Source: an uncultured virus (IMG/VR IMGVR_UViG_3300040811_000464) (Duplodnaviria > Heunggongvirae > Uroviricota > Caudoviricetes). Taken from it: a stretch of 64,000 nucleotides of DNA. The DNA is taken from the IMG/VR virus record IMGVR_UViG_3300040811_000464, one strand, 5' to 3'. Positions 7,150 through 59,325 of this stretch are shown here, one piece after another; position 1 is the first letter of the stretch, and each line of letters starts with the position of its first letter. The notes under the pieces were generated by a model. The model saw nothing but the letters and a program-made list of their open reading frames with translations. It was not told the origin of the DNA and did not search any database. A program made the position numbers and the translations under genes.

Positions 7150-7172
7150 AAGTTTAACTACTCCTATGTTAA

Positions 7173-7231: not shown

Positions 7232-7260
7232 TACATGTAACGGGAGTAAACAAGCAACGT

Positions 7261-12855: not shown

Positions 12856-13610
12856 AAAAAGAAAAGATATTATTAATTGCTGGATGTTCACATGCCGCAG
12901 GATCTGAGATTGACGGCAATGAAGATTCAGACTACAATAGAGAACATTCATACGGTGCATTAATTGCTAAACATTTAAAACGTAAACCAGTTAATATCGC
13001 ACAAGTGGGTGCAACTAATACAGGTATTAGTAGACAAGTATTGCAATGGTTTCATAATTGCTATAATCCAGATACTATGAATGTAAATGTACTTGTATCT
13101 TGGACGGAACCTACTAGATTAGAAGTGCCTAGTGAATCAGAACGCAACTATCAAAGTGCATCACATGCAACTGATTGGTATGAAAAAGGTAGTGACTATT
13201 TTTATAAAGTTATCATAGGTTGGATCGGAGAAGACGAAGAAGAAAAAAGAGACACTCCAGACTTGCACAAATTTATGGCTAATCATCAACCTTACTTAGA
13301 ATACCAATCATATCAATTAATCTTACAAATACAGTATTTGTTGCAATCACATAAGATTCCTTATATGATGTTAAATGCAATGCCATTCTTTTTAGATGAT
13401 ATAACTGCTATCAAAAATCTTCTGCCCTTGGTAGATGATAATAAATACTATCAGTTAAACAATAAAGACGAAGCATTTTATCAAAAATATCAACGTCTGG
13501 GATATGTCAACGAAAAAGCAAAGTATTGGCATCACGGCGAAGAACCGCATAAATTATTTGCTGATGAATTGATTAACTTTAATGAGGAATACAAATGTTT
13601 AAAAAGATAA
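12852..13610 (+). CDS. SGNH/GDSL hydrolase-fold protein
   Basis: AGCSHAAG, NIAQVGATN and WHHGEEPH motifs. Confidence 0.6.
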   Translation: MKKEKILLIAGCSHAAGSEIDGNEDSDYNREHSYGALIAKHLKRKPVNIAQVGATNTGISRQVLQWFHNCYNPDTMNVNVLVSWTEPTRLEVPSESERNYQSASHATDWYEKGSDYFYKVIIGWIGEDEEEKRDTPDLHKFMANHQPYLEYQSYQLILQIQYLLQSHKIPYMMLNAMPFFLDDITAIKNLLPLVDDNKYYQLNNKDEAFYQKYQRLGYVNEKAKYWHHGEEPHKLFADELINFNEEYKCLKR

Positions 13611-13744
13611 TCGATAAGATTAAACATCTCTTACGTAAGATTGCAGACTTCTTAAAGACTCCTTACATCAAATACAAACGTGAAAAAGAATATAAGAAAC
13701 GTTTAGCAGAACTTAAGAAAAGAGATCCATTCATTTACAAATGA
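13595..13744 (+). CDS. Small basic protein, 49 aa, not in the ORF track
   Basis: MFKKIIDK...ELKKRDPFIYK; GAGG SD; ATGA overlap with the next gene. Confidence 0.65.
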   Translation: MFKKIIDKIKHLLRKIADFLKTPYIKYKREKEYKKRLAELKKRDPFIYK

Positions 13745-13989
13745 GTGAAAAATTAGTTAAGGCACTCTATGAAGGGGTAGTCACAATTGTTTTTGAAAAG
13801 ATTGACACAAAAGAAATCAGAATTATGCCCTGCACCCTTAACAAAGATTTTCACAAGCAAACAATTGAGATTAAAAATTTAAGTGCGATGGACACTATAG
13901 TATGTTATGCTTTAGACAAACTAGCATGGCGTGATGTTCGTATTAACACAATCAAAGATTGGTACAAAGGATATCCAAAAGAAGTATGA
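13741..13989 (+). CDS. WYL_2/DUF2693-like SH3 beta-barrel protein
   Basis: GVVTIVFEK...R.M.CTL...WRDVR pattern typical of T4-like phages. Confidence 0.6.
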   Translation: MSEKLVKALYEGVVTIVFEKIDTKEIRIMPCTLNKDFHKQTIEIKNLSAMDTIVCYALDKLAWRDVRINTIKDWYKGYPKEV

Positions 13990-22235: not shown

Positions 22236-22598
22236 ATGAAGATAACAGGAACACAGTTAGGTACTACATTGATTGTAGCATTTTTCGCATTAATGATTGC
22301 TTGCCCGGTAAATGCAGAGAAATCTGATGAACGACTCATCCGTGAGAGTTCTAAAACATATACAGGAGCAACTCGTATCATCAATGGCAAAATTGTAAAG
22401 TATCCTCGTCATTATAGTTTACATACGCATCAAAAACGTGGGAACACTATGGTACATATGGGTAGTAACGCAGTACCTTACTATACAGGGTATGCTAGAC
22501 ATACGTATCATACTGAAGTTAAATACATTAAAGACGATGTAAATGACGCATTAGATACCGCAATTAAAATTCTAGTAATCAAAGAATTACTAGATTAA
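22236..22598 (+). CDS. Hypothetical secreted protein
   Basis: AAGGAG SD before ATG 22236; hydrophobic signal-like N-terminus ending VNA. Confidence 0.55.
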   Translation: MKITGTQLGTTLIVAFFALMIACPVNAEKSDERLIRESSKTYTGATRIINGKIVKYPRHYSLHTHQKRGNTMVHMGSNAVPYYTGYARHTYHTEVKYIKDDVNDALDTAIKILVIKELLD

Positions 22599-22603
22599 AT
22601 TAT

Positions 22604-22845
22604 TGTTGTATGAAGTGAAGTAAAAGGCACTTTGGACGCCGGTTCGACTCCGGCCACCTCCACCAATAAACAGCAGAGGGGGTGTATAGGGTTTCGACAG
22701 GGTGATTAGTAACTGAATGGACAACACAGTAGGCGATGACTGTAAATCAAGCAAATCTATAATTGGCAACGATTATACAATGGAAGACTACGCCTTAGCG
22801 GCCTAGTCCCCCGAGGTTCACGGTAGCCTCGTCACCCAATACCCA
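22604..22845 (+). ncRNA. ssrA: tmRNA gene, circularly permuted (two-piece); outer ends approximate
   Basis: T-arm GCCGGTTCGACTCCGGC plus CACCTCC-A-CCA ends at 22665 and precedes the 5' strand GGGGGTG...TTCGAC at 22678. G3:U70 pair present. Tag frame 22765-22806 encodes GNDYTMEDYALAA*. Confidence 0.92.
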
Positions 22846-22867
22846 GAGGGGCATTTATTTGCCCCTC
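22846..22867 (+). terminator. Hairpin at the end of the tmRNA gene
   Basis: GAGGGGC-atttattt-GCCCCTC. Confidence 0.6.
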
Positions 22868-22889
22868 GCCTATTTCGATAAATAGATAT

Positions 22890-24128
22890 ATGAACATATC
22901 TGAACTAGAAAAATTCAAAATTGAAGATGCGATCAACTTCCATGATGAGTTGAATCCTTTGTTGTTTGATGAAAACAATAAACTGAAGCCAAACATCAAA
23001 AAGCAATTAGAAATCATTACTGATGACTTTATAGAATACATGGGTATTCCTGATCTTGCTGTAGAAGATGTAATCATTACTGGTAGTAATGTTGCATTTA
23101 CATACACACCTCATTCGGATATTGATTTGCATCTACTTGTAGATTTTGCAGAACTTCCAGAGTCAGATGTTTATAAAGAATTATTCAATGCTAAAAAGTC
23201 TTTATATAACGACACATATGACATTACAGTTAGAGGTATTCCTGTAGAGTTATACGTACAAGACACAGCACAAGCACATACTAGTTTAGGCGAATATAGT
23301 CTTATGCAAGATAAGTTTACTCGTTTCCCTAGTAAACAAAGAGCAAACTTAGATGAAATCTCAGCAGAACATAAGTTTGAAAGATTAGAAGAACTGTGTA
23401 TTGAAGGTCTTAAGTCAAAAGACATCGATAAAGTAAACAATGTTTTATCTATCATTAAAAGATATAGACAAGCAGGCTTAGATAAGAAAGGAGAGTTCGG
23501 TCCTGAGAATTTAGCATTTAAGGCTATCAGATCCAAAGGATACTTTCAAGCACTATTTGATTTGCGTAACAAGTTAAGAGGTGAGCAATTATCTATCGAA
23601 GAAGAAATGTTCCGTAGAACGTTTGAAGAATCTATCGGTGTTTATAATAGCAAAGTCAATATTGCAGAAGGCGAAGATGGCGTAGAGCAGTTAGCAAAAC
23701 AGTTTAATATGAAAAATATGGAAGTTGCTAAGTATGTCGATCAGGCTGTCAAGTTTGAAATGAAACTGTCAAATAAAGATAAAGGTGAAGCATATAAACT
23801 AGCAATGAATAATCTTGCAAAAGATATAGAATATTATGACAAGATGGTTAGTTTTTTAGCCGCAGTTGAAAGAATAAACAGAAGTGCTAAAGATGACGTA
23901 GAAGTTCAAGTAAATGAAGCATCAGGATATATTCCAAGTGAAGCACAAAAGAACGATCCAAGATTTTCTTATGCTTTGACTGTAGACGTACATCCAGATA
24001 CTATGAAGAAACAAGCAAAAGCAATGGGCTTAGGAGACATTCAACGTGATGGTCGTCCCCCACTTCTAAGACCGGGCAAGAAGAAAACTAAGAATGCTAA
24101 AACAGACTTTGGCAAAGGCATCTATTGA
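22890..24128 (+). CDS. Pol-beta superfamily nucleotidyltransferase-domain protein
   Basis: ITGSN...SDIDLHL (GS...DxD) and downstream VELYVQD. Confidence 0.7.
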   Translation: MNISELEKFKIEDAINFHDELNPLLFDENNKLKPNIKKQLEIITDDFIEYMGIPDLAVEDVIITGSNVAFTYTPHSDIDLHLLVDFAELPESDVYKELFNAKKSLYNDTYDITVRGIPVELYVQDTAQAHTSLGEYSLMQDKFTRFPSKQRANLDEISAEHKFERLEELCIEGLKSKDIDKVNNVLSIIKRYRQAGLDKKGEFGPENLAFKAIRSKGYFQALFDLRNKLRGEQLSIEEEMFRRTFEESIGVYNSKVNIAEGEDGVEQLAKQFNMKNMEVAKYVDQAVKFEMKLSNKDKGEAYKLAMNNLAKDIEYYDKMVSFLAAVERINRSAKDDVEVQVNEASGYIPSEAQKNDPRFSYALTVDVHPDTMKKQAKAMGLGDIQRDGRPPLLRPGKKKTKNAKTDFGKGIY

Positions 24129-25025: not shown

Positions 25026-25075
25026 GTTGTTGATTCTTATAGGCAAAATAATTTCAATTATTTTTGCAAAAAGGC

Positions 25076-25104
25076 TTGACATCAGTACCCGAAGGCTCTA
25101 TAAT
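25076..25104 (+). promoter_or_regulatory. Sigma70-type early promoter
   Basis: TTGACA-N17-TATAAT; spacer contains ACCCGAAGG. Confidence 0.85.
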
Positions 25105-25138
25105 ACATAGTATATTCAATAAAAGAACGGAGTTAAAA

Positions 25139-26236
25139 ATGTCTCAATTAACTGAAAATCTGACTGTAACAAGTCAACAAGCAAAGCCCGCAATCAAAGC
25201 GGCTATGAAAGCAAATCGTCCATCATTCTTGTGGGGACCTCCCGGAGTCGGCAAGTCTGAACTTGTCGAGGAGATCACTAACGAGTTAGGTGGTCATATG
25301 ATTGATCTGCGTATGGCGCAGATGGAACCTACTGATATCAGAGGTATCCCTTTCTTCAACAAAGAATTAGGAGTTATGGATTGGGCTCCCCCAATCGAAC
25401 TTCCAACTGAAGAACTTGCTTCTCAGTATCCGTGTATTGTTCTTTTCTTAGATGAAATGAACTCAGCACCACCAGCAGTGCAGGCTGCAGGTTATCAACT
25501 TGTTCTTAATGGACGTGTTGGTAAGTATGTTCTTCCTAAGAATGTACATATTGTAGCCGCTGGTAACCGCGACTCTGATAAGGGTGTTACATATCGTATG
25601 CCGATGCCCCTTGCTAATCGTTTCATTCATTTAGAAATGCGTCCTGACTTTGCTTCTTGGCAGAACTGGGCTATCGAAAATCAAGTGCATGAGGACGTAG
25701 TTGGTTACTTGTCATTTGCAAAACAGGACTTGTATGATTTCGATGCTAAGTCTTCTTCACGTGCATTTGCTACTCCGCGTACATGGACATTTGTGTCTCA
25801 ATTGCTACAAGAAGAGGATATGGATCCCGATACTCTGTACAATCTTGTTGCTGGTACTGTTGGTGAGGGCCTTGCTACTAAGTTTGTAGCACATCGTAAG
25901 ATTGCTAGTAAAATGCCTAATCCATCTGATATCTTGTCAGGCAAAGTCAAAGAACTGTCTGTCAAAGAAATCTCTGCAATGTATTCCTTGACTATCTCAA
26001 TGTGCTATGAACTTAAGAGTGCCCTTGAGACTGATAAGGTCGATAACAAGAAGTTCCACGAAATGTGCGATAACTTCTTTGGCTATATCATGGCTAACTT
26101 TGAAACAGAGTTAGTGGTCATGGGTGCGAAAGTTGCACTCAAAACTTATAAGTTACCCATCGAACCCTCTCAGTTGAAAAACTTTGATGAGTTCCACAAA
26201 CGATATGGTAACTACATCGTTGAGGCTGGCAACTAA
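25139..26236 (+). CDS. MoxR-like AAA+ ATPase
   Basis: GPPGVGKS Walker A, LFLDE Walker B, AAGN and LANRF motifs; GGAG SD before ATG 25139. Confidence 0.85.
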   Translation: MSQLTENLTVTSQQAKPAIKAAMKANRPSFLWGPPGVGKSELVEEITNELGGHMIDLRMAQMEPTDIRGIPFFNKELGVMDWAPPIELPTEELASQYPCIVLFLDEMNSAPPAVQAAGYQLVLNGRVGKYVLPKNVHIVAAGNRDSDKGVTYRMPMPLANRFIHLEMRPDFASWQNWAIENQVHEDVVGYLSFAKQDLYDFDAKSSSRAFATPRTWTFVSQLLQEEDMDPDTLYNLVAGTVGEGLATKFVAHRKIASKMPNPSDILSGKVKELSVKEISAMYSLTISMCYELKSALETDKVDNKKFHEMCDNFFGYIMANFETELVVMGAKVALKTYKLPIEPSQLKNFDEFHKRYGNYIVEAGN

Positions 26237-26248
26237 AATTGCTGACCT

Positions 26249-26296
26249 GGGAGAGTGTAAGGTCCGAGACATTCCTTACACTTTCCCGAACTTTTT
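26249..26296 (+). terminator. Intrinsic terminator
   Basis: GGGAGAGTGTAAGG / CCTTACACTTTCCC stem followed by a T-tract. Confidence 0.7.
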
Positions 26297-26298
26297 GC

Positions 26299-26327
26299 TT
26301 GACATGTCTCCCCAAAGGTGATATAAT
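26299..26327 (+). promoter_or_regulatory. Sigma70-type early promoter
   Basis: TTGACA-N17-TATAAT; spacer contains CCCCAAAGG. Confidence 0.85.
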
Positions 26328-26359
26328 TATTAAATACTTTTGAGAAACGGAACTGACAC

Positions 26360-27652
26360 ATGACTAAGAATTCTACAACAACTAACAACGACAAAGAGAG
26401 CAAACTGGCGCATCTAGTAGGTCCTACAGACCCTCAGGTAGATGCACAAGCCCGTGATCGCCTTATCACTGCCCGTATTGCTCTGTTACTCAGACATTCA
26501 TTTTTTGGTAATCTTGCTACACGTTTGACACTCATCAATGCTGATGAATGGTGTCCAACTGCCGCAACTGATGGTAAGCATTTTTACTACAATGCACGTT
26601 TCATTATGATGCTAAAGAAGAAGGAAGTAGAATTTCTTGTAGCACATGAGGTACTTCATGTAGTTTATGATCATATGGATCGTAGAGGTACTAGGGATCC
26701 TCAACTATGGAACATTGCTGATGACTATTGTGTCAACGCAGACTTGAAAAATCACAACATTGGTGAGTTCATCACTACTGTCCCTTGCTTGTATGACTAC
26801 AAATATGACAAAATGTCAGCAGAGCAAGTCTATGATATTCTGTATGAGAATGCAGAAGTTATTGACATTGAGCAATTGCTTGACCAATTGCTTGATGAAC
26901 ATTTAGAAGGCGAGGGTGCAGGTGCTGGTGATGGTGATGGCGAAGAAGGTGACAAGCCCGGGCCAGTCAAAATGTCTAAGGAAGAAAAGGATGCACTCAA
27001 GCAGGAGATGAAAGAAGCAATCATCAATGCGGCTCAAGGTGCTGAAGCAGGATCATTACCCAAAGGTGTTGAACGTTTAGTTAAAGATTTAACATCTCCT
27101 GTAATGCCCTGGGACGACATTATTCAAACTAATCTGACCAGCACAATGAACAATGACTATTCGTTTATCAAGCCTTCTCGTAGGGGTTGGCATCAGGACG
27201 CAATCATGCCAGGTATGACTCCAGGTGAAATGATTGACGTTGATGTGTTTTTAGATATGTCAGGATCTATTGGTTCTGAACAAGGAACCTTTTTCCTTTC
27301 AGAAATTCAAGGTATTATGGAGACGTTTACTAACTACAAAATTCATGTACATTGTTTTGATACTGAAGTCTACAATCCACAAACATTCGACAGTGATAAC
27401 TTAGATGAAATCACTGACTACGAAATCTACGGTGGTGGTGGTACTGACTTTGATTGTATCTTTAACTATCTGAAACGTGAAGGTCGTGTACCCAATCGTC
27501 TAATCGTATTCACAGATGGTTACCCGTTTGGTAGTTGGGGCGATGAAAACTATTGCGACACTACATGGATCATTCATGGTGACCCTGAGCCGAATCCCCC
27601 TTTCGGTACATGGGCAATCTATGATGAACACAAACATAAACAAGCCGCATGA
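26360..27652 (+). CDS. DUF2201-type metallopeptidase with VWA-like domain, MoxR partner
   Basis: TAATDG, HEVLH (HExxH), DMSGS MIDAS, GGGTDF and FTDG motifs. Confidence 0.85.
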   Translation: MTKNSTTTNNDKESKLAHLVGPTDPQVDAQARDRLITARIALLLRHSFFGNLATRLTLINADEWCPTAATDGKHFYYNARFIMMLKKKEVEFLVAHEVLHVVYDHMDRRGTRDPQLWNIADDYCVNADLKNHNIGEFITTVPCLYDYKYDKMSAEQVYDILYENAEVIDIEQLLDQLLDEHLEGEGAGAGDGDGEEGDKPGPVKMSKEEKDALKQEMKEAIINAAQGAEAGSLPKGVERLVKDLTSPVMPWDDIIQTNLTSTMNNDYSFIKPSRRGWHQDAIMPGMTPGEMIDVDVFLDMSGSIGSEQGTFFLSEIQGIMETFTNYKIHVHCFDTEVYNPQTFDSDNLDEITDYEIYGGGGTDFDCIFNYLKREGRVPNRLIVFTDGYPFGSWGDENYCDTTWIIHGDPEPNPPFGTWAIYDEHKHKQAA

Positions 27653-30611: not shown

Positions 30612-31730
30612 ATGGCACATAAGAAAAAATTAAACATATGCGTAACAGGTGGATTAGGATTTATCGGTGCCCATGTTGTAGTTAAATTAATTAACGAAGG
30701 ACATGATATTGCTATTTTAGATACTAAAACAGATTATGGTATCATAGACCAAGAAGAATTGGATGCTGTAACAAAAGAAAGATTTTTTGGTATAGCAGGT
30801 AGAATGACTGGCGCTACCAATTTAAACATCTACACGATTGATGTTGCTAACCCTGAACTAAAAACTTTATTTGAAAAAGAAAAGTTTGATGCCGTAATTC
30901 ATCTTGCAAGTTTCCCTAGACAAAAAGTAGTCAATAACAATCCAACTGCTGGCTCTAAAGTAATGAGTGAAGGTTTGTTAAACTTATTAGAACTAAGTAG
31001 GACAACAGGAGTAGATCGTTTTACATATATCAGTTCTTCAATGGTATACGGAGATTTTTCAGATGGCGTTGAAGAATGGGAAGACTGCATACCCAAAGGT
31101 CAGTATGCAATTATGAAGTATGCTGGAGAGTTGTTAGTGCAAGATTACACTAGGCAATATGGATTAAATCATACTATCATTCGTCCTAGTGCTGTGTATG
31201 GTCCTTTAGATGTCTGCGATAGAGTTATTTCTAAATTCTTTTACAACGCAATCAAAGGTGAAAAAATTGTTGTTAATGGCAAGATGGAGAAATTAGATTT
31301 TACATTTGTAAATGATGTTGCAACTGGTATTGTACAAGCAACAACAAGTGCTAAAGCAAAAAATGAAACATATAATCTTACTAAATCACAGGGTGTAACA
31401 CTTTATGATGCCGCAACAATGGTTAAACAAATAGTAGGAAAAGGTAATATTGAAGTCAAACAAAAAGATAACAATTTCCCTAGCAGAGGCGCATTAAGTA
31501 CTGAAAAAGCAAAAAACGATTTCAACTTTAATCCAGTTACAAATCTAAATGAAGGTTTGGTAGTTTATTATAATTGGTTACAAAATTCTGCTTATTGGCA
31601 AGAACAATTTAATCCTAAGCCTAAACAAGAAGTTAAAGTTGCTCCGGCAAAAGTCACTAATGTTAAGACAAAGCCAACAAAGCCTAAAACAACAAGAAAA
31701 CCTAGAGCAAAAGCAAAGCCGAAAAAATGA
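30612..31730 (+). CDS. NAD-dependent epimerase/dehydratase with basic tail
   Basis: TGGLGFIG, SSSMVYG and YAIMK (YxxxK) motifs. Confidence 0.9.
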   Translation: MAHKKKLNICVTGGLGFIGAHVVVKLINEGHDIAILDTKTDYGIIDQEELDAVTKERFFGIAGRMTGATNLNIYTIDVANPELKTLFEKEKFDAVIHLASFPRQKVVNNNPTAGSKVMSEGLLNLLELSRTTGVDRFTYISSSMVYGDFSDGVEEWEDCIPKGQYAIMKYAGELLVQDYTRQYGLNHTIIRPSAVYGPLDVCDRVISKFFYNAIKGEKIVVNGKMEKLDFTFVNDVATGIVQATTSAKAKNETYNLTKSQGVTLYDAATMVKQIVGKGNIEVKQKDNNFPSRGALSTEKAKNDFNFNPVTNLNEGLVVYYNWLQNSAYWQEQFNPKPKQEVKVAPAKVTNVKTKPTKPKTTRKPRAKAKPKK

Positions 31731-32944
31731 CGGAGTCGTTTTGTGTTTTACCTTGGGTAAACATTACGGTTGACCCGGACGGCGCAATTAAACCTTGTTG
31801 CATTTCACATGACTATATTAAAAAAGAAGACGGTACCAAGTTTAACTTGGGTTATGATAGTATTGATGACATCTACAACAGCAAAGACTTTGTTGATCTA
31901 AGACAAAAGATGTTAGACGGAGAGTATATCTCTGGATGTGATGTATGTTATCACAATGAAAAGTACGGTCGTCAAAGTCGTAGATTAATTAACAACGAAC
32001 AATACAAAAATGTTATTCCAACTACGACTACGAGTAATTTAAAAATTAAATTCTTTGATTTACGTTTTGGTAATTTATGTAATCTCAAATGTAGAAGTTG
32101 TAACCCTACAAACAGTAGTCAGATAGAAAAAGAAATCTTAGAAATCAACAATGCAGAGTACACAAGATTTTACCCACAGTTTGATGTAGAAAGTAATTAC
32201 TGGTGGGAGACAGATACGTTTGATGAAAATATAAAAAGTCAAGTAGACAATATAGATACAATTTACATGACTGGTGGCGAGCCTACTGTTATCGAAAAGA
32301 ACTTTGAAATATTAAGTGAGTTAATAGAGTTAGATAAAAGTAAAGACATCACTTTAATTATCAATACAAATCTTACAAACACCAATCCAAAATTCTATCA
32401 GTATCTACCTAACTTTAAGTCAGTCATACTACAACTTAGTATTGATGGTTACAAGGGTGTACAAGAGTATCTAAGATACCCTAGCAAGTTTAGTCAGATT
32501 GACGAAAGCATACAGAAACTTATTAAAATGCATAATGTTAAATTGTGGGCGACACCTGTTATTCAGATAGGAAATTTAAACATGATAGTTGATCTGTTTA
32601 AATACTTTGAAGACATTAACATTAAAGAAAACAAGCCGTTAATTGATATTAGACCGATTTTATTGCAAGACCCACAACATTTAAATATCGATTATTTGCC
32701 CAAAGACTTCAAACAAAAAGCCTTTGCAAAAATATTTATGTGGATGTTAAATGATTGCAAATGGCAGTCACAGATTTTTAAAGATACAATAAACGCATTA
32801 AAAGAAAAGTGCCAAGAAGAAAGCAAAGACATAAACATGTTACAAGAATATATTAAATTTAATAATTTGTTAGATGATCATAGAGGACAGAGACTAGCAG
32901 ATTGTAACTACGATTTGCATACACTGTTAAAAGAATATGATTAA
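31727..32944 (+). CDS. Radical SAM protein with N-terminal SPASM/twitch-like Cys cluster
   Basis: FCVLPW...PCC...C..C; GNLCNLKCRSC; GGEP. Confidence 0.85.
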   Translation: MTESFCVLPWVNITVDPDGAIKPCCISHDYIKKEDGTKFNLGYDSIDDIYNSKDFVDLRQKMLDGEYISGCDVCYHNEKYGRQSRRLINNEQYKNVIPTTTTSNLKIKFFDLRFGNLCNLKCRSCNPTNSSQIEKEILEINNAEYTRFYPQFDVESNYWWETDTFDENIKSQVDNIDTIYMTGGEPTVIEKNFEILSELIELDKSKDITLIINTNLTNTNPKFYQYLPNFKSVILQLSIDGYKGVQEYLRYPSKFSQIDESIQKLIKMHNVKLWATPVIQIGNLNMIVDLFKYFEDINIKENKPLIDIRPILLQDPQHLNIDYLPKDFKQKAFAKIFMWMLNDCKWQSQIFKDTINALKEKCQEESKDINMLQEYIKFNNLLDDHRGQRLADCNYDLHTLLKEYD

Positions 32945-34046
32945 GTATTTTGGATTAGACAGACAATACAAAAATCTTAAAGATGAATTGCTTGATGCAA
33001 CTGATTCAGTTCTTTCTAGTGGCGGTCTTAATGACGGTGAGTATTCACAGAAATTTACAGATTGGTTATCAATAAAAACAAAGGCCGAATTTGTCATACT
33101 GTGTCATAGTGGAACTCAAGCATTAGAAATTATTGCACGTTACGAAAGAGATACGTCTCCAGACCAAGATCCATTTACTAAATGGGATTACGACCAAGAA
33201 TCATATCGAACAATTAGAGTTCCTAATCTAACATACCCCGCAACAATGAATGCATTTTTAAGTGCTGGATTAAATGTAGAATTGGCAGATACAGATTCAA
33301 ATGGAATCATTCTACCTCAACCAGAAGATCAATTACAAAAAATTGAATGTCATGTTGGTTTATTCGGTGCACCAACTGTAGCAGTAGAAAGTGATAATGG
33401 TATTGGAGTATTAAACAATAATGTTGCAATTATAGACGGAGCACAACATTGGTTAATTGCAGACGGTAACATAGGAACTGCAATGGCAATTAGTTTTGAT
33501 CCTACTAAAAATTTAAATGCTTCGGGCAATGGTGGAGCCATTGTTACTAATAACCAAGCCTTATATGAATTTGCTACGCAATGGAGAGACAATGGAAAAC
33601 CTTATCATTTTTATTCTGGAACAAATTCTAAAATGAGTGAACTAGATTGTTCTCATTTGTTAGTAAGAGCAAAGTATATAGATGAATGGCAAGAACGTAG
33701 AAAACAAATTAGAAAATACTACATAGACAGATTTAAACATATCCAATCATTAAAATGTTTAAGTGAAGGGTTTGACATACATGCTGATTCAAAGTTTGTA
33801 GTTAATGCTAGAGCGGAACGTCAGCATTTAGAAGCATGGTTAAATACTAAAAATATAGAAACTAAAATACATTATAAACAAGCATTAAGTGAACACCCTA
33901 TTGCAGAAAATTTAGAAAAACCAGACTTGATGGCTACAAGTGTATTACTTACCCGATCATTATTAAGTTTGCCTATGTATCCTGAATTAACTGATGCAGA
34001 AGTCGAAGAAGTTGCAAATCAAGTTTGCATTTTTTATGAGCCTTAA
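32937..34046 (+). CDS. DegT/DnrJ/EryC1/StrS aminotransferase
   Basis: SGTQAL, DGAQ, SFDPTKNL..GNGG and LSLPMYP motifs. Confidence 0.9.
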   Translation: MIKYFGLDRQYKNLKDELLDATDSVLSSGGLNDGEYSQKFTDWLSIKTKAEFVILCHSGTQALEIIARYERDTSPDQDPFTKWDYDQESYRTIRVPNLTYPATMNAFLSAGLNVELADTDSNGIILPQPEDQLQKIECHVGLFGAPTVAVESDNGIGVLNNNVAIIDGAQHWLIADGNIGTAMAISFDPTKNLNASGNGGAIVTNNQALYEFATQWRDNGKPYHFYSGTNSKMSELDCSHLLVRAKYIDEWQERRKQIRKYYIDRFKHIQSLKCLSEGFDIHADSKFVVNARAERQHLEAWLNTKNIETKIHYKQALSEHPIAENLEKPDLMATSVLLTRSLLSLPMYPELTDAEVEEVANQVCIFYEP

Positions 34047-41436: not shown

Positions 41437-42999
41437 ATGAGCAACTTTAACGCAAGTGGTACGGGCGAATTAGTCAAACCAGCATATAAGAAAACAGCAT
41501 TTAAAAATCAAAAAGAAATTGATGATTTTGTAAAGTGTTGTGATCCTGATACTGGTTATCTATACTTTATGGATAACTTCTTTTATATTCAGCACCCAAC
41601 ACAAGGTTCAATTCAATATCATCCTTATGAATACCAAGAACGTTTAATCGACACATATCACAACTATAGATACTCTATTGCATTGATGCCTAGACAGTCT
41701 GGTAAGTCTACGTCAGCCGCAGGTTACTTGCTATGGTATGCTATGTTTGTACCTGATGCTACTATTCTAATCGCCGCACATAAGTACACAGGTTCACAAG
41801 AGATTATGCAACGTATCAGATATGCATATGAAAACTGTCCTACACACATTAAAGCAGGTGTTGTTACATACAACAAAGGATCGTTAGACTTTGAGAATGG
41901 CTCTCGTATTGTATCAGCAACAACTACAGAGAATACGGGTCGTGGTATGTCGATCACACTCTTGTATCTGGATGAGTTTGCATTCGTAAGACCTACAATT
42001 GCTGAACAGTTTTGGACTTCTATTACACCAACACTAGCAACAGGCGGTAAAGCAATCATCACATCTACTCCGAACTCTGATGAAGATCAGTTTGCATTGA
42101 TTTGGAAACAAGCCAATAAGAATATAGATGCTAACGGAGAAGAGACAGAATTAGGTATTAATGGATTCAAACCTTTTAGATCATATTGGAATGAACAACC
42201 CGGACGTGATGATAAGTGGGCAGAAGAAATAAAAGCACAATTAGGAGACGACAGATTTGCACGTGAAATCGGTTGCGAATTCTTAATAGCAGATGAAACA
42301 TTAATCAATCCTAATACATTAATCATGTTAGAATCAGTAGAACCTACAAATAGAATGGGTCAAGTCAGATGGTTTCAAAAACCCAAGAAAGGCATGGTCT
42401 ATTGTGTAGGATTAGATCCGTCATTGGGTACAGGTGGAGATCCAGCCGCAATACAAATCTTTGAAGCAAACACTACTACACAGATAGGTGAATGGAAAGA
42501 TAACAAAACAGATATTCCTCAACAAATTAAGTTATTGGGACAAATTACACAATACATCGCAGATGAAACTGGAGAACCTAATAACATTTACTACTCACTT
42601 GAAAACAATTCAATAGGAGAAGCCGCATTAATCTCACTAGCAGAATATGGTGAATCAAATATTCAAGGTATATTCTTAAGTGAGAAAGGTAAAAAACGTA
42701 GAGGATACAATACAACACACAAAGTCAAACTTGCCGCTTGTGCTAAATTCAAAACATTGATGGAAAGTAAAAAAATGAATGTAAAAAGTAAAGCATTGAT
42801 TAGTGAGTTAAAGACTTTTGTTGCATCAGGTGGTAGTTATCAAGCAAAAATCGGAGATAATGATGACTTAGTAATGGCTACCCTGCTCGTAGTACGTATT
42901 TTACAAGACATTACAGACTTTCACAGTGACTTAACAGAACATATGCGAGACCATGATGAAATGGTTGCACCCTTGCCGTTCTTTGCTGTGATTAACTAA
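41437..42999 (+). CDS. terL: Terminase large subunit (T4 gp17-like)
   Basis: PRQSGKST Walker A, LDEFAF Walker B, ITSTPN, nuclease GLDPS and DDLVMA motifs. Confidence 0.95.
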   Translation: MSNFNASGTGELVKPAYKKTAFKNQKEIDDFVKCCDPDTGYLYFMDNFFYIQHPTQGSIQYHPYEYQERLIDTYHNYRYSIALMPRQSGKSTSAAGYLLWYAMFVPDATILIAAHKYTGSQEIMQRIRYAYENCPTHIKAGVVTYNKGSLDFENGSRIVSATTTENTGRGMSITLLYLDEFAFVRPTIAEQFWTSITPTLATGGKAIITSTPNSDEDQFALIWKQANKNIDANGEETELGINGFKPFRSYWNEQPGRDDKWAEEIKAQLGDDRFAREIGCEFLIADETLINPNTLIMLESVEPTNRMGQVRWFQKPKKGMVYCVGLDPSLGTGGDPAAIQIFEANTTTQIGEWKDNKTDIPQQIKLLGQITQYIADETGEPNNIYYSLENNSIGEAALISLAEYGESNIQGIFLSEKGKKRRGYNTTHKVKLAACAKFKTLMESKKMNVKSKALISELKTFVASGGSYQAKIGDNDDLVMATLLVVRILQDITDFHSDLTEHMRDHDEMVAPLPFFAVIN

Positions 43000-43016: not shown

Positions 43017-45692
43017 ATGGCAATTGATCAGGAATCCTTCAACAAACGACTCTACGATATTTTAAAAACTCGTGGATACAAACCAGCACCTAAAGACTCA
43101 AAAAACGAAAGAACAAATCCAGAAATAGCAGATGTTTTTGAGTTTCAATTTATTAAAGACGGTGAAAATTATGGTAAGGCATGGGCAACCATTGACAAAA
43201 CATCATCATTAAATATTTATTATGACGATAATCAAGCAGGTAGTCCCCCAGGACAAACAAAAGGCATAGATTATGATGATTCTTGGTCTGGATTACTAAA
43301 ACATTTAAAGCAATGGGCATTATCAAAACAACTAAACTTTGGCTTACATGACAGTGATCGTTTAGGTGACGATATGCGTCAAAGGGATTACTATAAAATG
43401 AAAGAAAAAATGACAGAAGGATATCATCCTGTTAATAAAACAACATCATATAATGACAACATACCAAACGTAAAAGTTGTAATTCAACATGATAGACAAA
43501 TCGGCGAAGGCGAGCAACGTTGGAGAAACGTCCACAAGATTTTTGTTGAAAATACTCAAGGCGAACGTTTTGCAGTCCCAACTAAAATGCCAGGTATTGC
43601 ACGTGTATATGGTAGACACGTAGCAGAAGGTGGAACTCCATATGATGAAAGAGGTAAGCACATTACTCAATTAGTCGAAGAATATACTAAGATGGCCGGC
43701 TTTGTCCGTGCCACACGCCGAGGAGAATTCAATGAATCTGTTGCACAACTTATAGCAGAAGGTGTCAAACATCACAGATCATTAAAAGAAACACTGCAAA
43801 AGATGCAAAGTCATAGAGGATACAATCATTATTTTGAGTCATGGACTCCTGCTCTTATGGAAGATGATGCCGATCATTCAAGCATTGCAGAAATGTTTTC
43901 GCATGAAACAATTGATCCTAGAATCGAAAGTGTTTTGCCTATCTTAAACAAACTTAATAGTAGCATCATTAATGAAATCGAAGAAGTCAACGAGTTAGAT
44001 CAATGGGCAAAGTCTATTACTGAAATGGAACAGATAGACGAAGAAAAAAGAGATACACATTGCTCAGATAAGTGCTGTGGCTCAGATGTAAAAGCAGAGG
44101 ACTGCACATGTTCACCAGATTGTCCACATTGTAACTGTAATGCAAAATTAGATGAAAGCGGTCTACAAAGATACACAGGTATTAAAAAGTACGGCAAAAA
44201 AGGTTTTGAAGAATTACAAAAAGCAGGCCGTGAAGGTGCAAGTGAAGAAGAAAAAGGTAAAATCAAAGACAAATATCTAACAAAAGAAGAAAGTGAAAAG
44301 CCAGGTGGAATGGGTACCGAAGATGATGATTTAAGAGATGAAGAATCAGGTAAAAACCATGACCCCAAAACAGGTAAAAGAATCAAACCTCATCCGTTCG
44401 ATCCAGGCGATGATCATTTAAACGAAGGTAAATATAATCAATTAGTAGTAGATGCTTTAGAAATGAGTGAAAAAGAATTTGGTGAAAAGCATCCTGCTGT
44501 AGCACATAGATATAATGATATTATAGCCGCATTTAGTAAAGAAGACTTAAAAGATAAACTAGAAAAACCTGTGCAACCTGAATTAGATTTATCTGAGAAT
44601 ACTGATTTCAGAACTTTAGTTAATTTAGACGTACAGAAAATACAACAAGCCTCTTCAAATGCAAAAGCATATGAAGAAGTAATCAAACAAAGAATTAGGG
44701 ATCTTAAATTACGAATACCAAAAGAAAGTGATCCGGTAAAACGTAAAGAAATATCATCGCAAATCAGAGAATACGAAAAGTACAAAAATCAATATGATTT
44801 TACTAAAGCCAGTTTAGCAAAAAATGCAAAAGATGCCTCAAGAATTGAAGCAGATAGAATATTAAACAAGAAACCTGATCCATATACAAGACCATCAGAT
44901 AAAGTAACTATCGGTACTGCTTTAGCAGGACTGTTAGGTGAAGAGTCAGTTATCGATGAAAAAGATTTTTCAGAAAAAGAAATTAAAATGGCATATGGCA
45001 TTTTAAATGATCCTAGATATAAAGGTGGAAATCAAACTGGAGCAATTAAAGCAATCGAAGGTATTAAAGCAGGACTATCTGAGCATCCAGGAGTTAAAAG
45101 AGCAATCTATAAAACACAAAATGAGCCTGATAATTTAGAAGAAGCAAATGCGCCGATTGAAAAAATTAAAAGTCCAATGACAGGGAAAGAAATCAAATAC
45201 ACAATATTAAATGGAGATGTATTTAACGAATATGGTGGCCCACTTGGATTTGATGATTATTTTGATATTATGGTCGCACATAATTATCCTGCAGAAGGCC
45301 CTACAATTACTCAAATGTATTCTGATTATAAAGATCAACACGGAAGTATACCGACTAGAGGTTACAACCCAGGTCATTCAATGAAAGAAGAAGAAATGGA
45401 TGAAGGTTTAGATGCTAATCAAAAACGTGCAGGGCAATTAGGACCTGTAGGTGGTCCTGCAAAAGTAGGTGATTTAGTTGGATCTGAAAGTAAACACGCA
45501 GATGATGAAATGTCTATTCATCAAATGTCTGATGAAGATTTAGCAGATTATCTTAATGTAGATGTTAAAGATGTTAAAGCAGATAGAGACCACGCAGAAG
45601 AAGTTGCAAACGACAAATCACGTGATCATGCGCCTGACAATATGTTAGAAGATATCTTACGTTTAAGTGGATATAGTAAATACGAGAAATAA
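43017..45692 (+). CDS. Large late hypothetical protein with mosaic C-terminus, possible head protein
   Basis: 891 aa; TAAATA-N5-ATG; Cys-rich insert; acidic modules. Confidence 0.65.
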   Translation: MAIDQESFNKRLYDILKTRGYKPAPKDSKNERTNPEIADVFEFQFIKDGENYGKAWATIDKTSSLNIYYDDNQAGSPPGQTKGIDYDDSWSGLLKHLKQWALSKQLNFGLHDSDRLGDDMRQRDYYKMKEKMTEGYHPVNKTTSYNDNIPNVKVVIQHDRQIGEGEQRWRNVHKIFVENTQGERFAVPTKMPGIARVYGRHVAEGGTPYDERGKHITQLVEEYTKMAGFVRATRRGEFNESVAQLIAEGVKHHRSLKETLQKMQSHRGYNHYFESWTPALMEDDADHSSIAEMFSHETIDPRIESVLPILNKLNSSIINEIEEVNELDQWAKSITEMEQIDEEKRDTHCSDKCCGSDVKAEDCTCSPDCPHCNCNAKLDESGLQRYTGIKKYGKKGFEELQKAGREGASEEEKGKIKDKYLTKEESEKPGGMGTEDDDLRDEESGKNHDPKTGKRIKPHPFDPGDDHLNEGKYNQLVVDALEMSEKEFGEKHPAVAHRYNDIIAAFSKEDLKDKLEKPVQPELDLSENTDFRTLVNLDVQKIQQASSNAKAYEEVIKQRIRDLKLRIPKESDPVKRKEISSQIREYEKYKNQYDFTKASLAKNAKDASRIEADRILNKKPDPYTRPSDKVTIGTALAGLLGEESVIDEKDFSEKEIKMAYGILNDPRYKGGNQTGAIKAIEGIKAGLSEHPGVKRAIYKTQNEPDNLEEANAPIEKIKSPMTGKEIKYTILNGDVFNEYGGPLGFDDYFDIMVAHNYPAEGPTITQMYSDYKDQHGSIPTRGYNPGHSMKEEEMDEGLDANQKRAGQLGPVGGPAKVGDLVGSESKHADDEMSIHQMSDEDLADYLNVDVKDVKADRDHAEEVANDKSRDHAPDNMLEDILRLSGYSKYEK

Positions 45693-45698
45693 TGATAA

Positions 45699-45848
45699 GT
45701 GGAAGCAATTTTCATAGGAATACTGATGATGCTACCGATGATCTGTGGTGGTTTTACCTTTGTAGTAAGTCAACAAGCAGTAGAGGGTAAATTCAATGGC
45801 AGACAAGAAAAAGAAACAGTCAAAGATTTATCTGATACCCGAAGGTGA
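45699..45848 (+). CDS. Possible small membrane protein, 49 aa
   Basis: GTG start and hydrophobic N-half; overlaps the bL33 gene by ~50 nt. Confidence 0.3.
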   Translation: MEAIFIGILMMLPMICGGFTFVVSQQAVEGKFNGRQEKETVKDLSDTRR

Positions 45849-45999
45849 AACTAGAGATCACCATACATATCATTACACCGCTATTAAAACAAAAAATTTA
45901 ACTATAAGTAATACTAAGTTGAAACTTAAAAAGTACAACCCGGTTAAAAGAAAACATGAGTGGTTCGTAGAAGCAAAACTACCCCCTCATTCTAAGTAA
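45796..45999 (+). CDS. rpmG: 50S ribosomal protein L33 (bL33), Cys-free type
   Basis: KIYL...Y...K...KLKLKKYNPVKRKHEWFVEAK matches the bL33 pattern KL.LKK(F/Y)(D/N)P..R.H..(F/Y).E.K; GAGG SD. Confidence 0.85.
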   Translation: MADKKKKQSKIYLIPEGETRDHHTYHYTAIKTKNLTISNTKLKLKKYNPVKRKHEWFVEAKLPPHSK

Positions 46000-46008: not shown

Positions 46009-46698
46009 ATGAGATTTACAGAGTTCTTTACTGAAGAAAACGATCTGGAGAAAAAGAGAACAGTTCCTCCATTGGACATCAAGTCCAGAGATGTCGTATC
46101 AAAAGATGACACTGAAGATGCTATCGCAAATGTAGATACAAGTCAGATACAAGGCATGGATGATCGTATGGCACAACTTGCTCAGAACAAAGACTTAATC
46201 TATCAATACACTGATGATGAAATGACTGATCTTATTCCTGTTGATGATGAAGAAGAGGAAGAAGGTGTAGGCGTAACAATCGAAGAACCAAACACACTAC
46301 CACAAGAAATTAGACAAGACTTAAGAACACATGGTGACGTAACAGCAAGGTTTCATTCTGTAGAGAATCTACCTGGTTACTTAGATGATGCTATTCGTAT
46401 GATGGGTCAAAAAGTATTTGCATCTCTAACAGCAACTCCAATCGATGAAATCAATGTACTTGTTAATTTAGGAGATCAAGGACCAAACGAGCAACGAGAA
46501 CTAAATGCTGTTGCTGGAATGGTTGATACTTATGGAGAAAGAAGAGGAGACTATGAAATGAAATTCGATAGAATCCTCCCCGGATATGAAGCAGATATTC
46601 GTGTCTATGAGTACAAAGATCAGATATTCTGCTTAGTAAAAGATTTTGCAGGCTCTTACATTTATAGTTGGCCAGCAGAGAATAAAAAACTTAATTAA
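46009..46698 (+). CDS. Hypothetical protein with capsid-targeting-like N-terminus
   Basis: Starts MRFTEFFTEE; acidic. Confidence 0.6.
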   Translation: MRFTEFFTEENDLEKKRTVPPLDIKSRDVVSKDDTEDAIANVDTSQIQGMDDRMAQLAQNKDLIYQYTDDEMTDLIPVDDEEEEEGVGVTIEEPNTLPQEIRQDLRTHGDVTARFHSVENLPGYLDDAIRMMGQKVFASLTATPIDEINVLVNLGDQGPNEQRELNAVAGMVDTYGERRGDYEMKFDRILPGYEADIRVYEYKDQIFCLVKDFAGSYIYSWPAENKKLN

Positions 46699-56611: not shown

Positions 56612-57736
56612 ATGCAAAAGATTGAATTTACATCGAAAGAGCAGGTCATTTATTTTATGTTGACCGCTTCCATTAGTTTGTCTCACTATGATCACAAATT
56701 CATATCCAACATGCAATCATTGAGCCAAGATAAGAAACAGATTACGTCTGGTCAAGCAGAATTGTTTGATAAACTTTTGCACAAGTACAGAAAGCAATTT
56801 GCTACTAACGGATACACAGTCGAGGAGTTAGAATCATTACCATGGAAGTGTATAGTTGTAGAAAGTCTACCCAAGTATACTAATGCAAATGTTGACTGGG
56901 ACGATAGTGTAAATAAAATGACTATTAGAGTCCCATTCAAAAAAGATTTTATATCTGGCTTTAGAAAAGAAATGTCAACTTTTTTTCCTATTGACAATTA
57001 TGGTCCAATAGATAACTCTCAGCCTTGGGTATGGAATGCCGAACGCAAAAGATATGAAGCAGATCCAAGTACTTCATCTTTGAAATTGGCATACAATATC
57101 TTACCGCAGTATTTTACTACTGTTTATCATAATGAAATAAAAAATATTATTGAACAGTTAGAATCCAAAACTGTAAAATACAAAGACCCAACACTAGTCT
57201 TAGTTGATGGGCAATATACTGTTGTCAATTCTAATGCAATATTAGATGAGTTACTAGCCGATGTAACTTTAGATAACAGTGCAAAATGTTTATATCAAAT
57301 CTCACAATTTGGTATAAAAATAGACAAATCAATCATCAATGATGATCCTAAACTAGAGTTTGCCGCAAACTACATTACGGAAGTAGAAGTAGATGCAATA
57401 AACGATTGTTGTGAATGGCTTGTTGAACTTGGTGTAAATGATTTAGTATTGGGGAGAGGAACTCCTCAGTACAGATCACATGTATCGAAAACTGAGTCTC
57501 AGAGTATTGGAGTATTTAAAGAATGTAGAGAGGCTTTTGCTAATCATAATTTAAGAATACATAAGAGCGGAGATTTGTTTGATCTTCCTGAAGATGATCA
57601 CAACGAAACAACTGTAAAAGGTGTACCTGTCTTGGTGCAATTTAATTCAATTGTAGAACCAGAACAATGTCATGGAGATAATCGAAATGGCAAAATTATA
57701 ATTATAACAAACAGGAGACCTGTAACAATAAAATGA
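56612..57736 (+). CDS. Hypothetical protein
   Basis: 374-aa ORF starting 6 nt after a TATAAT. Confidence 0.7.
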   Translation: MQKIEFTSKEQVIYFMLTASISLSHYDHKFISNMQSLSQDKKQITSGQAELFDKLLHKYRKQFATNGYTVEELESLPWKCIVVESLPKYTNANVDWDDSVNKMTIRVPFKKDFISGFRKEMSTFFPIDNYGPIDNSQPWVWNAERKRYEADPSTSSLKLAYNILPQYFTTVYHNEIKNIIEQLESKTVKYKDPTLVLVDGQYTVVNSNAILDELLADVTLDNSAKCLYQISQFGIKIDKSIINDDPKLEFAANYITEVEVDAINDCCEWLVELGVNDLVLGRGTPQYRSHVSKTESQSIGVFKECREAFANHNLRIHKSGDLFDLPEDDHNETTVKGVPVLVQFNSIVEPEQCHGDNRNGKIIIITNRRPVTIK

Positions 57737-59325
57737 ATAATTTAGATAAAAACTTTCACATCAACTTTTCACCATTCTATGCAATAGTCGTAGTAATGAT
57801 GTTAATGTTTGTAGCAAATAAACTACAAGCACAAGAGATTGAAGAAATTGTAGTAGTAGGTGCAACTGTATATGAAACGGAATCGGATCCTTCGACTGAC
57901 GTTAACATATTAGAATCGATCATACCTGAAGCAACAACTGCTGGTGGATATGGTTCTTTTTTAGGTTACACTGAAAGAGGAACACAAACAATACACACAA
58001 CTATTTTTAGAAATGGTGTGCCAGCAAATGATGCCGGTAGTGGCTGGTATGACTTTGGGCATGACTTTTCTACTGGTAACGAGAATGTAAAAATAGTTAA
58101 CGGTCCAAATTCAGTACTATACGGTTCTGGTAGTTTAGGCGGTTCTATTTTTATCACTGATGATCTTAAAGATGGATCTATTATTCGATATGGTAGCAAT
58201 ACATTTGTAAGTCATACAGGTAGTGGGTTTAACCTAAGTTACTTTGATGCAAAAAATGATAGTGTTAGAACAGACAACGATGAAAAGGATAGTTATAACA
58301 ATTTGACAGTCAAAGGACAACAAGAATTTGGAGACTGGAAAGTAAATCTATCTGGCACATCATATGAATATGATTATGACAATTGTTATACTGCAAGTTT
58401 CTCACAGTCAAACGACTGTGTACAATCAGGAGATAAAGGTTCCTTATCAATAAGGAACGATAACTACACGTTTGGTTACTCATTTAATAATGCTAACTAC
58501 AAAACAGAAAGTGTAGAAACATATAAGAGTGATGCAGAAAGGTTTTATGCAGACACTAGACATACATACGGGGACAATATTTATGGTGCAACCGTTGAAT
58601 ATGAAAAGTATGAAAACACATCACAAAACAATGTCTCTGTTTATACAATACTGAATAACTTTGATCCTATTAACATAGGACTTCGTTTAAGTGAAGATGC
58701 ATTTGTCTATCGTCTTGGACATCAGGCAGATAATTGGTTCACAAGTTTCGGTACATCATATCGTAATCCAACTCTCTATGAACTGAATGGTGATGCTTGG
58801 ACTTTACCTAATAAAGATTTAGACCCTGAAGAAGCAACAGGTTTTGAAGTTGGTTATAAAAACATAACTTTCTTTAAATACAAATTTACAGAAGGTATCA
58901 ATTACAGTTTTGCAGACTCACAGTTTGTTAACACTGGATCATATGACACTGAAGGTGTTAGATACATAAACAGTTTTGTTGTTGAAAAACTTAACACTAC
59001 AATGATAGGTGTCGAGTTAGGTTATACTAATAGTGATCAACCTCGTATTCCTGAGTACAAAGCAATCATATCATCTACAACTTATTTAGGTGATTATGAT
59101 ATTTCATTCAGATACACTGGATTGTTTAACAGAGAGCCTGGTCCATATGACGGCACAGAAATACTAGATGATGTAAGTTCATTTGACTACAAAATTGAAA
59201 AAGCATTCCCTAACTACTTGCTATCTTTTACTGTAAGAGATATACTAGATGATGAATTTGAAATGGTACCTAACTATCGATCAGGTGGATTAGAGTATTT
59301 CTTAACACTACAATATAGGCTTTAA
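57733..59325 (+). CDS. TonB-dependent outer-membrane receptor (BtuB-like)
   Basis: Signal peptide; TonB-box-like EEIVVVG; plug RG...NGVP.ND...GPNSVLYGSGSLGG; SYRNPTLYEL; L.PE; C-terminal strand YFLTLQYRL. Confidence 0.85.
   Translation: MNNLDKNFHINFSPFYAIVVVMMLMFVANKLQAQEIEEIVVVGATVYETESDPSTDVNILESIIPEATTAGGYGSFLGYTERGTQTIHTTIFRNGVPANDAGSGWYDFGHDFSTGNENVKIVNGPNSVLYGSGSLGGSIFITDDLKDGSIIRYGSNTFVSHTGSGFNLSYFDAKNDSVRTDNDEKDSYNNLTVKGQQEFGDWKVNLSGTSYEYDYDNCYTASFSQSNDCVQSGDKGSLSIRNDNYTFGYSFNNANYKTESVETYKSDAERFYADTRHTYGDNIYGATVEYEKYENTSQNNVSVYTILNNFDPINIGLRLSEDAFVYRLGHQADNWFTSFGTSYRNPTLYELNGDAWTLPNKDLDPEEATGFEVGYKNITFFKYKFTEGINYSFADSQFVNTGSYDTEGVRYINSFVVEKLNTTMIGVELGYTNSDQPRIPEYKAIISSTTYLGDYDISFRYTGLFNREPGPYDGTEILDDVSSFDYKIEKAFPNYLLSFTVRDILDDEFEMVPNYRSGGLEYFLTLQYRL

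Follow-up and report, generated by a model that had tools for sequence, protein, structure and literature searches.

Ribosomal proteins are encoded by some phages. The sections of Mizuno et al. 2019 (Nat Commun 10:752, PMC6375957) used here report bL33 on more than ten aquatic viral contigs, with at least two virus-host transfers, and describe it as a contact of the E-site tRNA and as one of the loosely bound, exchangeable ribosomal proteins, the kind enriched in viruses. For the jumbo cyanophage PhiMa05, Meza-Padilla et al. 2026 (PMC13157829) report bL33 as one of six ribosomal proteins, with a link to Vampirovibrio, and a published comment disputes the claim. For phage bS21, expression is reportedly linked to late replication, according to the part of Chen et al. 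2022 (PMC9723584) considered, and the relevant passages of Weinheimer and Aylward 2022 (PMC9123017) use ribosomal proteins only as a binning filter. Phage-encoded bL33 as such is already published and is not new. Here we analyze a bL33 gene at positions 45796..45999 of a 64,000-nucleotide stretch (the window) of the uncultured Caudoviricetes virus IMGVR_UViG_3300040811_000464, and compare it with the bL33 of marine bacteria of the SAR86 and SAR11 groups. Within the literature searched, we found no description of the bL33 variant shared by SAR86 and SAR11 or of its phage copies.

The open reading frame (ORF) is a genuine bL33 (rpmG) gene. Its product scores 27.2 bits against the NCBIfam equivalog TIGR01023 (rpmG_bact; cut-off 23.95, E 3.5e-6, residues 1-61), and all 31 PDB sequences that phmmer retrieves with it at E <= 10 are bL33 or the mitochondrial form bL33m. 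A profile of the family alignment A3, composed of 55 members, matches 41 PDB sequences at E <= 0.01, again exclusively bL33 or bL33m (best E 1e-10). Aligned to the canonical bL33 chain 28ye_E, this profile has four additional residues in the first loop and two in the second, and the window-type tail extends beyond the canonical C-terminus. The AlphaFold2 model based on A3 (mean pLDDT 83.1) consists of four strands (residues 9-16, 27-31, 43-48 and 53-60) and a short helix. When it is searched against PDB with Foldseek, the top 50 rows are bL33 chains of ribosomes (target TM up to 0.81, rmsd 2.1-2.2 A), the closest being those of gammaproteobacterial ribosomes; the E-values are weak (4.5e-3 at best) because only about 50 residues are compared.

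The protein is short and strongly basic (pI 10.04; 15 lysines, two arginines, five histidines). The first-pass annotation had described it as a 67-residue, cysteine-free bL33 with an extended loop (PEGETRDHHT, residues 15-24) and a LPPHSK tail (residues 62-67), and this description is confirmed. At the positions where zinc-binding (C+) forms of bL33 carry two CxxC pairs the window protein has no cysteine, and it belongs to the C- kind, as do SAR86 bL33 and other gammaproteobacterial bL33. A phmmer search over 1.84 billion representative sequences returned 151 proteins at E <= 0.001; the roughly 40 of these that were read are nearly all of the tailed kind, together with four unrelated long repetitive proteins, and they make no bridge to canonical bL33.

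To locate cellular relatives we scanned one genome per bacterial or archaeal species, using the alignment A2 because a first, more diverse one (A1) was too variable for the purpose. The scan found at least 571 relatives, and the best 80 were examined. Of these, 75 are SAR86-type loci with 71-80% identity, on contigs of up to 1.3 Mb that include one labelled as a chromosome, and the window bL33 is 73-80% identical to SAR86 bL33. The remaining five are Pelagibacterales loci, four of them titled Pelagibacteraceae, with 52-54% identity. Most SAR86-type loci are titled SAR86 cluster bacterium, and a few bear other bin names. The one titled as a Methanobacteriota metagenome-assembled genome (MAG; L122) has a SAR86 chromosomal neighbor gene, and the one titled as a Rickettsiales MAG (L141), for which no neighbor matched, has the bL33 form of one SAR86 subclade; we read both names as binning errors.

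The window protein and all 75 SAR86-type loci have the long first loop and the (L/M)PPH(S/N)K tail. One SAR86 form reads MADKKQTKVYLIPEGETRDSHTYHYTAIKTRKF..ENKKMRLKKFNPVKRVHEWFVEAKLPPHN, another subclade has a 67-residue form, MADSKKKQTKVY...LPPHSK, and none of them contains cysteine. The five SAR11-type loci have the tail and a VPE motif, and a full-length comparison of SAR86 with SAR11 bL33 gives 50% identity. The rpmG model, searched at E <= 10 in four SAR86 genomes and one SAR11 genome, matches nothing but the variant locus, which has 14.9-21.8 bits, below the cut-off. This locus is hence the sole bL33 of these cells, in a divergent form.

We scored the A2 profile against the genomes of 300 gammaproteobacterial species, sampled evenly (the sample held one more genome, which was left unscored, and three that are flagged as unpublished). 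Only two of the 300 exceed 100 bits, namely the SAR86 genome G002 itself and one 0.9-Mb genome. All others reach at most 39.8 bits, and their matches end by profile position 65, so that the full tail is absent from them. The two best-scoring canonical copies are about 50 residues long, end in ..AKIK and ..DKIK, and have neither loop extension nor tail. Among 301 sampled Alphaproteobacteria, only five genomes, all of 1.2-1.6 Mb, match at E <= 1e-11, three with about 100 bits and two with 58-63 bits, and the weaker two also end in MPPHSK. Since SAR86 has loop and tail in its one bL33, and SAR11-like genomes have a related form of them, the insertions noted in the first-pass annotation are neither specific to the phage nor phage inventions. 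They are lineage hallmarks, which phage and host lineage probably have in common through gene exchange. The label of a cysteine-free paralog, also given there, does not fit, because SAR86 has a single bL33 that is itself free of cysteine. Additional tailed variants (P0214/P0300, P0138/P0283 and P0151-P0156), ending in ..MPKHSA, ..MPPHSK or ..LPPHSK, occur on marine contigs of up to 178 kb. One of them is deposited under the name of a Crocinitomicaceae MAG, although closely similar forms are present in two alphaproteobacterial genomes, G336 and G515.

The gene is widespread among phages. We found 68 IMG/VR contigs with a relative of the window bL33, at 60-100% identity, and analyzed their neighborhoods starting from the following features of the window:

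45796..45999, + strand: bL33 (rpmG-like) coding sequence, SAR86-type variant, 67 amino acids plus stop, ATG start
45783..45787, + strand: Shine-Dalgarno-like GAGGG, read directly, 8 nt before the bL33 ATG
45693..45795, + strand: spacer of 103 nt between the 891-residue ORF and bL33, analyzed by consensus scan only
41437..42999, + strand: large terminase subunit TerL of T4 type (PF03237, PF17289; phrog_36964, 3e-105)
43017..45692, + strand: 891-residue ORF of no known family, conserved upstream neighbor that adjoins bL33 in 20 of the 68 IMG/VR loci
46009..46698, + strand: 229-residue ORF of no known family, frequent downstream neighbor, starting 9 nt after the bL33 stop

As the first-pass annotation had noted, bL33 lies downstream of the terminase region. 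Neighborhoods were classified by tblastn with neighbor proteins, and PHROG names were taken from 57 ORFs of seven loci. Phage neighbors of five kinds occur in 67 of the 68 loci, and SAR86 chromosomal neighbors in none. The window-type arrangement (TerL, the 891-residue ORF and bL33, followed by ORFs of 143, 137 and 999 residues) is present in 21 loci at a looser threshold, and the order TerL, 891-residue ORF, bL33 in 20 at a stricter one. In other loci, bL33 lies between Hsp20 and a ClpS-like protein (16 loci), between a glycosyltransferase and a pair of gamma-glutamyl cyclotransferase and peptide deformylase (13), between an endonuclease and QueD (7), or between UvsX/UvsY and a phrog_1250/UvsW module (6). 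Three loci mix neighbors of the window, UvsY and gp32 types, one has those of the UvsY and gp32 types, and one matches no class. With at least five different neighborhoods, bL33 changes its place from one phage genome to another and has no fixed link to late or structural genes.

This distribution bears on whether a SAR86 chromosomal fragment might have been mis-joined to a phage contig. The 73-80% protein identity to SAR86 bL33 is what such an artifact would produce, but the nucleotide identity to SAR86 copies is only 67-70%, the SAR86 neighbor gene is missing from all 68 loci, and the TerL-to-bL33 order recurs in 20 loci from many different samples. We regard a mis-join as extremely improbable. 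The phage copies are under strong purifying selection in diverged viruses. Pairwise dN/dS values (the ratio of nonsynonymous to synonymous substitution rates; NG86, ungapped 201-nt copies) have a median of 0.054 over 87 usable pairs of window-type phages and of 0.067 over 93 pairs of other phages, with dS of 0.8-1.2 and a maximum ratio of 0.19; the value for SAR86 bL33 is 0.009 over 47 pairs. Among the 68 loci, we did not see frameshifted or decaying copies in most close relatives.

Little distinguishes the phage copies from those of the cell. When 40 distinct phage sequences are aligned with 38 distinct SAR86 sequences, the two sets have at least one residue in common at every column. Only majorities differ: position 47 is tyrosine in 36 of the 40 phage sequences and phenylalanine in 37 of the 38 SAR86 sequences, and position 53 is mostly lysine in phages and mostly valine in SAR86. 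At several differing columns, such as Y47 and K53, the phage majority is the SAR11 residue. Judged by its residues, the phage protein looks like an ordinary bL33 of the SAR86-type variant, with no mark of changed function. As no column separates the two sets, like-for-like replacement is favored over remodelling: a phage copy indistinguishable in kind from the cell copy speaks for supply or replacement rather than for reprogramming of the ribosome.

The first-pass annotation had instead proposed that bL33 acts in a coordinated strategy with a transfer-messenger RNA (tmRNA) and leaderless late mRNAs to remodel translation. In such a reading, bL33 would alter E-site behavior and bias ribosomes towards phage messages. 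The tmRNA is indeed encoded in the window:

22529-22897, + strand: permuted (two-piece type) tmRNA (RF04321, 131 bits; RF01850 or beta_tmRNA, 118 bits) with the tag GNDYTMEDYALAA

The idea can also draw on the place of bL33 near the E site, as given in the sections of Mizuno et al. 2019 (PMC6375957) used here, and on the Shine-Dalgarno-like words that precede only 22 of the 57 mechanically called ORFs. This proportion, however, shows mixed use of the Shine-Dalgarno signal and not leaderless messages; many ORF starts were chosen mechanically, and leaderless starts are not readable from DNA. Against coordination, bL33 has its own Shine-Dalgarno signal, it lies 23 kb from the tmRNA, and in related phages it occupies at least five different neighborhoods, replication and chaperone modules among them. 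The T4 late-promoter word TATAAATA is depleted, with one occurrence in the window and 8.8 expected from shuffles, and not one residue column sets the phage protein apart from SAR86 bL33. We consider remodelling of this sort improbable, and the coordinated strategy finds no support. Many window ORFs have A/T-rich words such as ATAATA or TATATAAT directly before their ATG.

The N-terminus MADKKKKQSK is kept in relatives, so the assigned start is correct. The consensus scan found a weak terminator-like hairpin at 45731-45752 of the spacer and no sigma-70-like promoter upstream of bL33, and the T4 late-promoter word is absent from its vicinity. RNA evidence came from four metatranscriptome runs in the form of contigs, for which DNA carry-over is possible. 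One contig (run X2, record 8) spans 45650-45824 without a difference. It thus runs across the entire spacer and 29 nt into the ORF, short of the 31 letters required by our bridging rule. This contig gives only a weak hint against a leaderless bL33 message. None of the contigs of the four runs lies on the body of the ORF (45856-45979).

We consider it probable, from the comparisons above, that the phage keeps a host-type bL33 in order to supply or replace the host protein in the 50S subunit of a SAR86-like host. The protein would be made during infection from an ordinary message led by a Shine-Dalgarno signal, and would enter new or existing 50S subunits, where it would replace or top up host bL33. 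There it would take the position between the L1 stalk and the central protuberance, beside the E site, and the benefit to the phage would be to sustain translation as the host's own synthesis of ribosomal proteins fails. If the binding site in the host is co-adapted to the long loop and the tail, a phage protein would have to fit it, and this would account for the retention of every SAR86 hallmark in the phage copy.

Where this supply would take place is suggested by several features, and we are inclined to regard a SAR86-clade bacterium as the host. The bL33 variant itself points to SAR86. The GC content of the window (35.9%) is a weak pointer, as it compares with 31-36% in four SAR86 loci and 32% in a SAR11 locus. 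The end of the phage tmRNA tag (..DYALAA) resembles that of SAR86 (..NYALAA) and is unlike that of SAR11 (..LALAA). In full, the SAR86 tags read ANNDNYALAA or AENDNYALAA, and the SAR11 genome has a permuted tmRNA of alpha type with the tag ANNKLALAA; the phage tmRNA is a gamma-like tag end in a permuted architecture. A search with TerL over 266 genomes of the SAR86 order matched two genomes, and in these only other T4-like phages: two contigs of G840 have 53-58% identity and one contig of G839 has 32-34%, and all of them share TerL alone among the 57 window proteins. Either an infected cell or mis-binning may account for the two G840 contigs (14.4 and 21.4 kb). SAR86 is abundant and uncultured, and few phages are known for it to our knowledge; the loop and tail signature ties to it 68 IMG/VR contigs of uncultured marine T4-like and jumbo phages.

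Several observations weigh against the supply of bL33 to a SAR86 host, beginning with the assignment of the family. The first-pass annotation had proposed a check by hidden Markov model, which succeeds with TIGR01023 and narrowly fails with Pfam PF00471, where the window protein has 23.4 bits and the gathering score is 25 (51 of the 55 family members match PF00471 at E <= 0.01, the best with 5.7e-9). PHROGs holds no family for the protein, and tblastn against 50,697 deposited phage genomes returned nothing at E <= 0.01. As to the host, the phage tmRNA is permuted and the four SAR86 genomes have a one-piece tmRNA (174-184 bits). In the part of Mizuno et al. 2019 (PMC6375957) that gives the host table, two of the three L33 contigs have alphaproteobacterial k-mer hosts and one has SAR86. 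The same source, as far as used, cites the function of bL33 as obscure, and the fitness benefit of supplying it is therefore not self-evident; the timing of expression and the incorporation into ribosomes are inferred. The last two points also leave some room for a role outside ribosomes, in which the small basic protein would be reused as an RNA-binding or regulatory factor, for instance as a decoy for a host factor. However, conservation is spread over the whole sequence and is alike in phage and cell copies, and the dN/dS of 0.05-0.07 fits a retained ancestral binding surface. Such a reuse seems very unlikely.

A further point of the same kind comes from the phylogeny. The trees were built from 82 rows (81 different) and 67 columns and rooted on four SAR11 rows; the columns are few, the SAR11 branch is long, and the SAR86 rows are the 75 best of at least 571 matches. 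In a quick mixture-model tree, phage and SAR86 copies form one group (SH-aLRT 100), with SAR86 on one side of a branch (91). In the LG+G4 tree, SAR86 is one clade that excludes all phage copies (UFBoot 99, SH-aLRT 91); it is monophyletic in 99% of 200 bootstrap trees, and the phage rows are an unresolved grade outside it. The position of the SAR86 clade argues against recent uptake from the sampled SAR86 lineages and is equally compatible with transfer from phage to SAR86. In approximately unbiased (AU) tests, a constraint that unites all 40 phage rows lowers the log-likelihood by 0.10 units and is not rejected (p 0.40), and joining window-type phages with the 67-residue SAR86 subclade is disfavored but not rejected (difference of 7.5, p 0.10). 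This subclade and the window-type phage copies have the N-terminus MAD.KKKQ.K in common. The data fit a single ancient exchange between T4-like phages and the stem of SAR86, for which these alignments would allow either direction.

The direction may have been the reverse, from phage to SAR86. An old phage gene, taken from a SAR11-like Alphaproteobacterium, would then have given SAR86 its only bL33 in place of the canonical rpmG, and the phage copy would say little about the present host. The SAR86 clade (99/91) outside all phage copies in the tree rooted on SAR11 is what this history would leave, as are the phage majorities that often agree with SAR11 where they differ from SAR86 (Y47, K53), the tail in SAR11-like and other small alphaproteobacterial genomes, and the short canonical form in the other sampled Gammaproteobacteria. 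The gene order also speaks for this history. Gammaproteobacteria usually have an rpmB-rpmG pair, but in SAR86 bL33 is not beside rpmB, and no rpmG follows rpmB. In G002, some 684 kb separate rpmB (near 369 kb) from the bL33 gene (near 1,053 kb). At the rpmB locus of this genome (C1:367318-370497) rpmB is followed directly by a convergent FAD-monooxygenase-like gene and by no rpmG, and the only bL33 gene (L107) lies between a glycosyl-hydrolase-like gene and another housekeeping gene. Against the reverse direction, the alignment has only 67 columns, the SAR11 branch is long (0.91) and leaves the root unsure, phage monophyly is not rejected (AU p 0.40), so that a sister relation of either direction does equally well, and a SAR11-type protein occurs on a single viral contig, a weak locus at 47%. 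We hold this direction to be unlikely, although less so than remodelling.

The full scenario is similarly doubtful: the PPHSK-tailed bL33 would have originated in SAR11-like Alphaproteobacteria, travelled in marine T4-like myophages and later displaced the native rpmG of the SAR86 ancestor. If true, a core ribosomal protein of one of the most abundant gammaproteobacterial groups in the sea would be a phage-delivered xenologue, and the present phage copies the surviving vector lineage. SAR86 and SAR11 are members of different classes, yet both have an aberrant bL33 that is missing from their relatives, and the form found in phages is intermediate. Exchange of a core ribosomal protein by way of phages thereby becomes a concrete case that can be tested.

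The rest of the window places the gene in a T4-like marine myophage, probably a jumbo phage. Its TerL is 48% identical to those of the jumbo phages PA5oct (287 kb) and Phosso (469 kb). The closest record is a 43.6-kb IMG/VR fragment that has 65% of sampled words in common with the window and is rated 12% complete, which gives a genome of roughly 350 kb. The window encodes recombination and replication proteins (UvsX, UvsY, a UvsW-like helicase and a gp32-like single-stranded DNA-binding protein), a baseplate wedge-like protein, a virion structural protein, a holin, ThyX and many sugar or radical-SAM enzymes; no ribosomal protein besides bL33 was found in its 64 kb. The 891-residue ORF upstream of bL33 has no Pfam or PHROG match; it includes a cysteine-rich segment as well as long regions that are charged and of low complexity. 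In a relative, a metatranscriptome contig omits 132 nt within this ORF (44149 to 44282), and this suggests that the ORF varies in length among relatives.

Other parts of the window are unusual in their own right. The ORF at 57733-59325 (+ strand) has the Plug and beta-barrel domains of a TonB-dependent receptor (Pfam E 2e-8 and 2e-6), and an outer-membrane receptor gene is unusual for a phage; an ORF related to it (phrog_5687) lies directly upstream of bL33 in two of the loci (L025 and L038). Two clusters (2213-15524 and 30612-34046, + strand) encode B12-binding radical SAM enzymes, DegT-type aminotransferases, a carbamoyltransferase, an NAD-dependent epimerase and a SPASM radical SAM enzyme, and look like a sugar or nucleotide modification pathway. 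An 1855-residue ORF with no family match (15534-21101) adjoins the radical SAM and DegT clusters. At 25064-27652 (+ strand), a MoxR-like AAA ATPase (phrog_1297) is followed by a DUF2201 metallopeptidase/VWA protein (phrog_1314, labelled 'HNH endonuclease' in PHROGs), and the pair is conserved in phages.

We finally compared the window bL33 with the known systems. Its nearest counterpart is the cellular bL33 of SAR86 (L107, L081 and L123), which equals the phage copy in the loop IPEGETRD.HTYHY, the core KK(F/Y)NPVKR.HEWFVEAK and the tail LPPH(S/N)(K); both are free of cysteine and 64-67 residues long. The cellular gene differs in that it stands alone in the chromosome between housekeeping genes and is under tighter constraint (dN/dS 0.009, versus 0.05-0.07 in phages). 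The canonical gammaproteobacterial bL33 of the E. coli, Acinetobacter and Pseudomonas structures has the same fold (TM 0.76-0.81, 31-39% identity over about 54 columns) and is also free of cysteine, but is only 49-55 residues long, without the four-residue loop extension and the PPHSK tail. Among phage systems, bS21 is likewise a single small exchangeable ribosomal protein of large phages, in the part of its description considered (PMC9723584); unlike bL33, which lies by the E site, it belongs to the other subunit and acts at initiation. PhiMa05, in the available part of its account (PMC13157829), is of jumbo type with a bL33 gene, as the window phage probably is; it differs in having six ribosomal proteins and a link to Vampirovibrio, whereas the window has in its 64 kb a sole one, of SAR86 type. 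The contigs of Mizuno et al. 2019 are the closest precedent, being uncultured aquatic phages with a bL33 that is read in the sections used (PMC6375957) as a host-derived, exchangeable ribosomal protein. Beyond what those sections contain, the present locus adds the loop and tail hallmark, its identification in the sole bL33 of SAR86, and five phage neighborhoods in which the gene is found.

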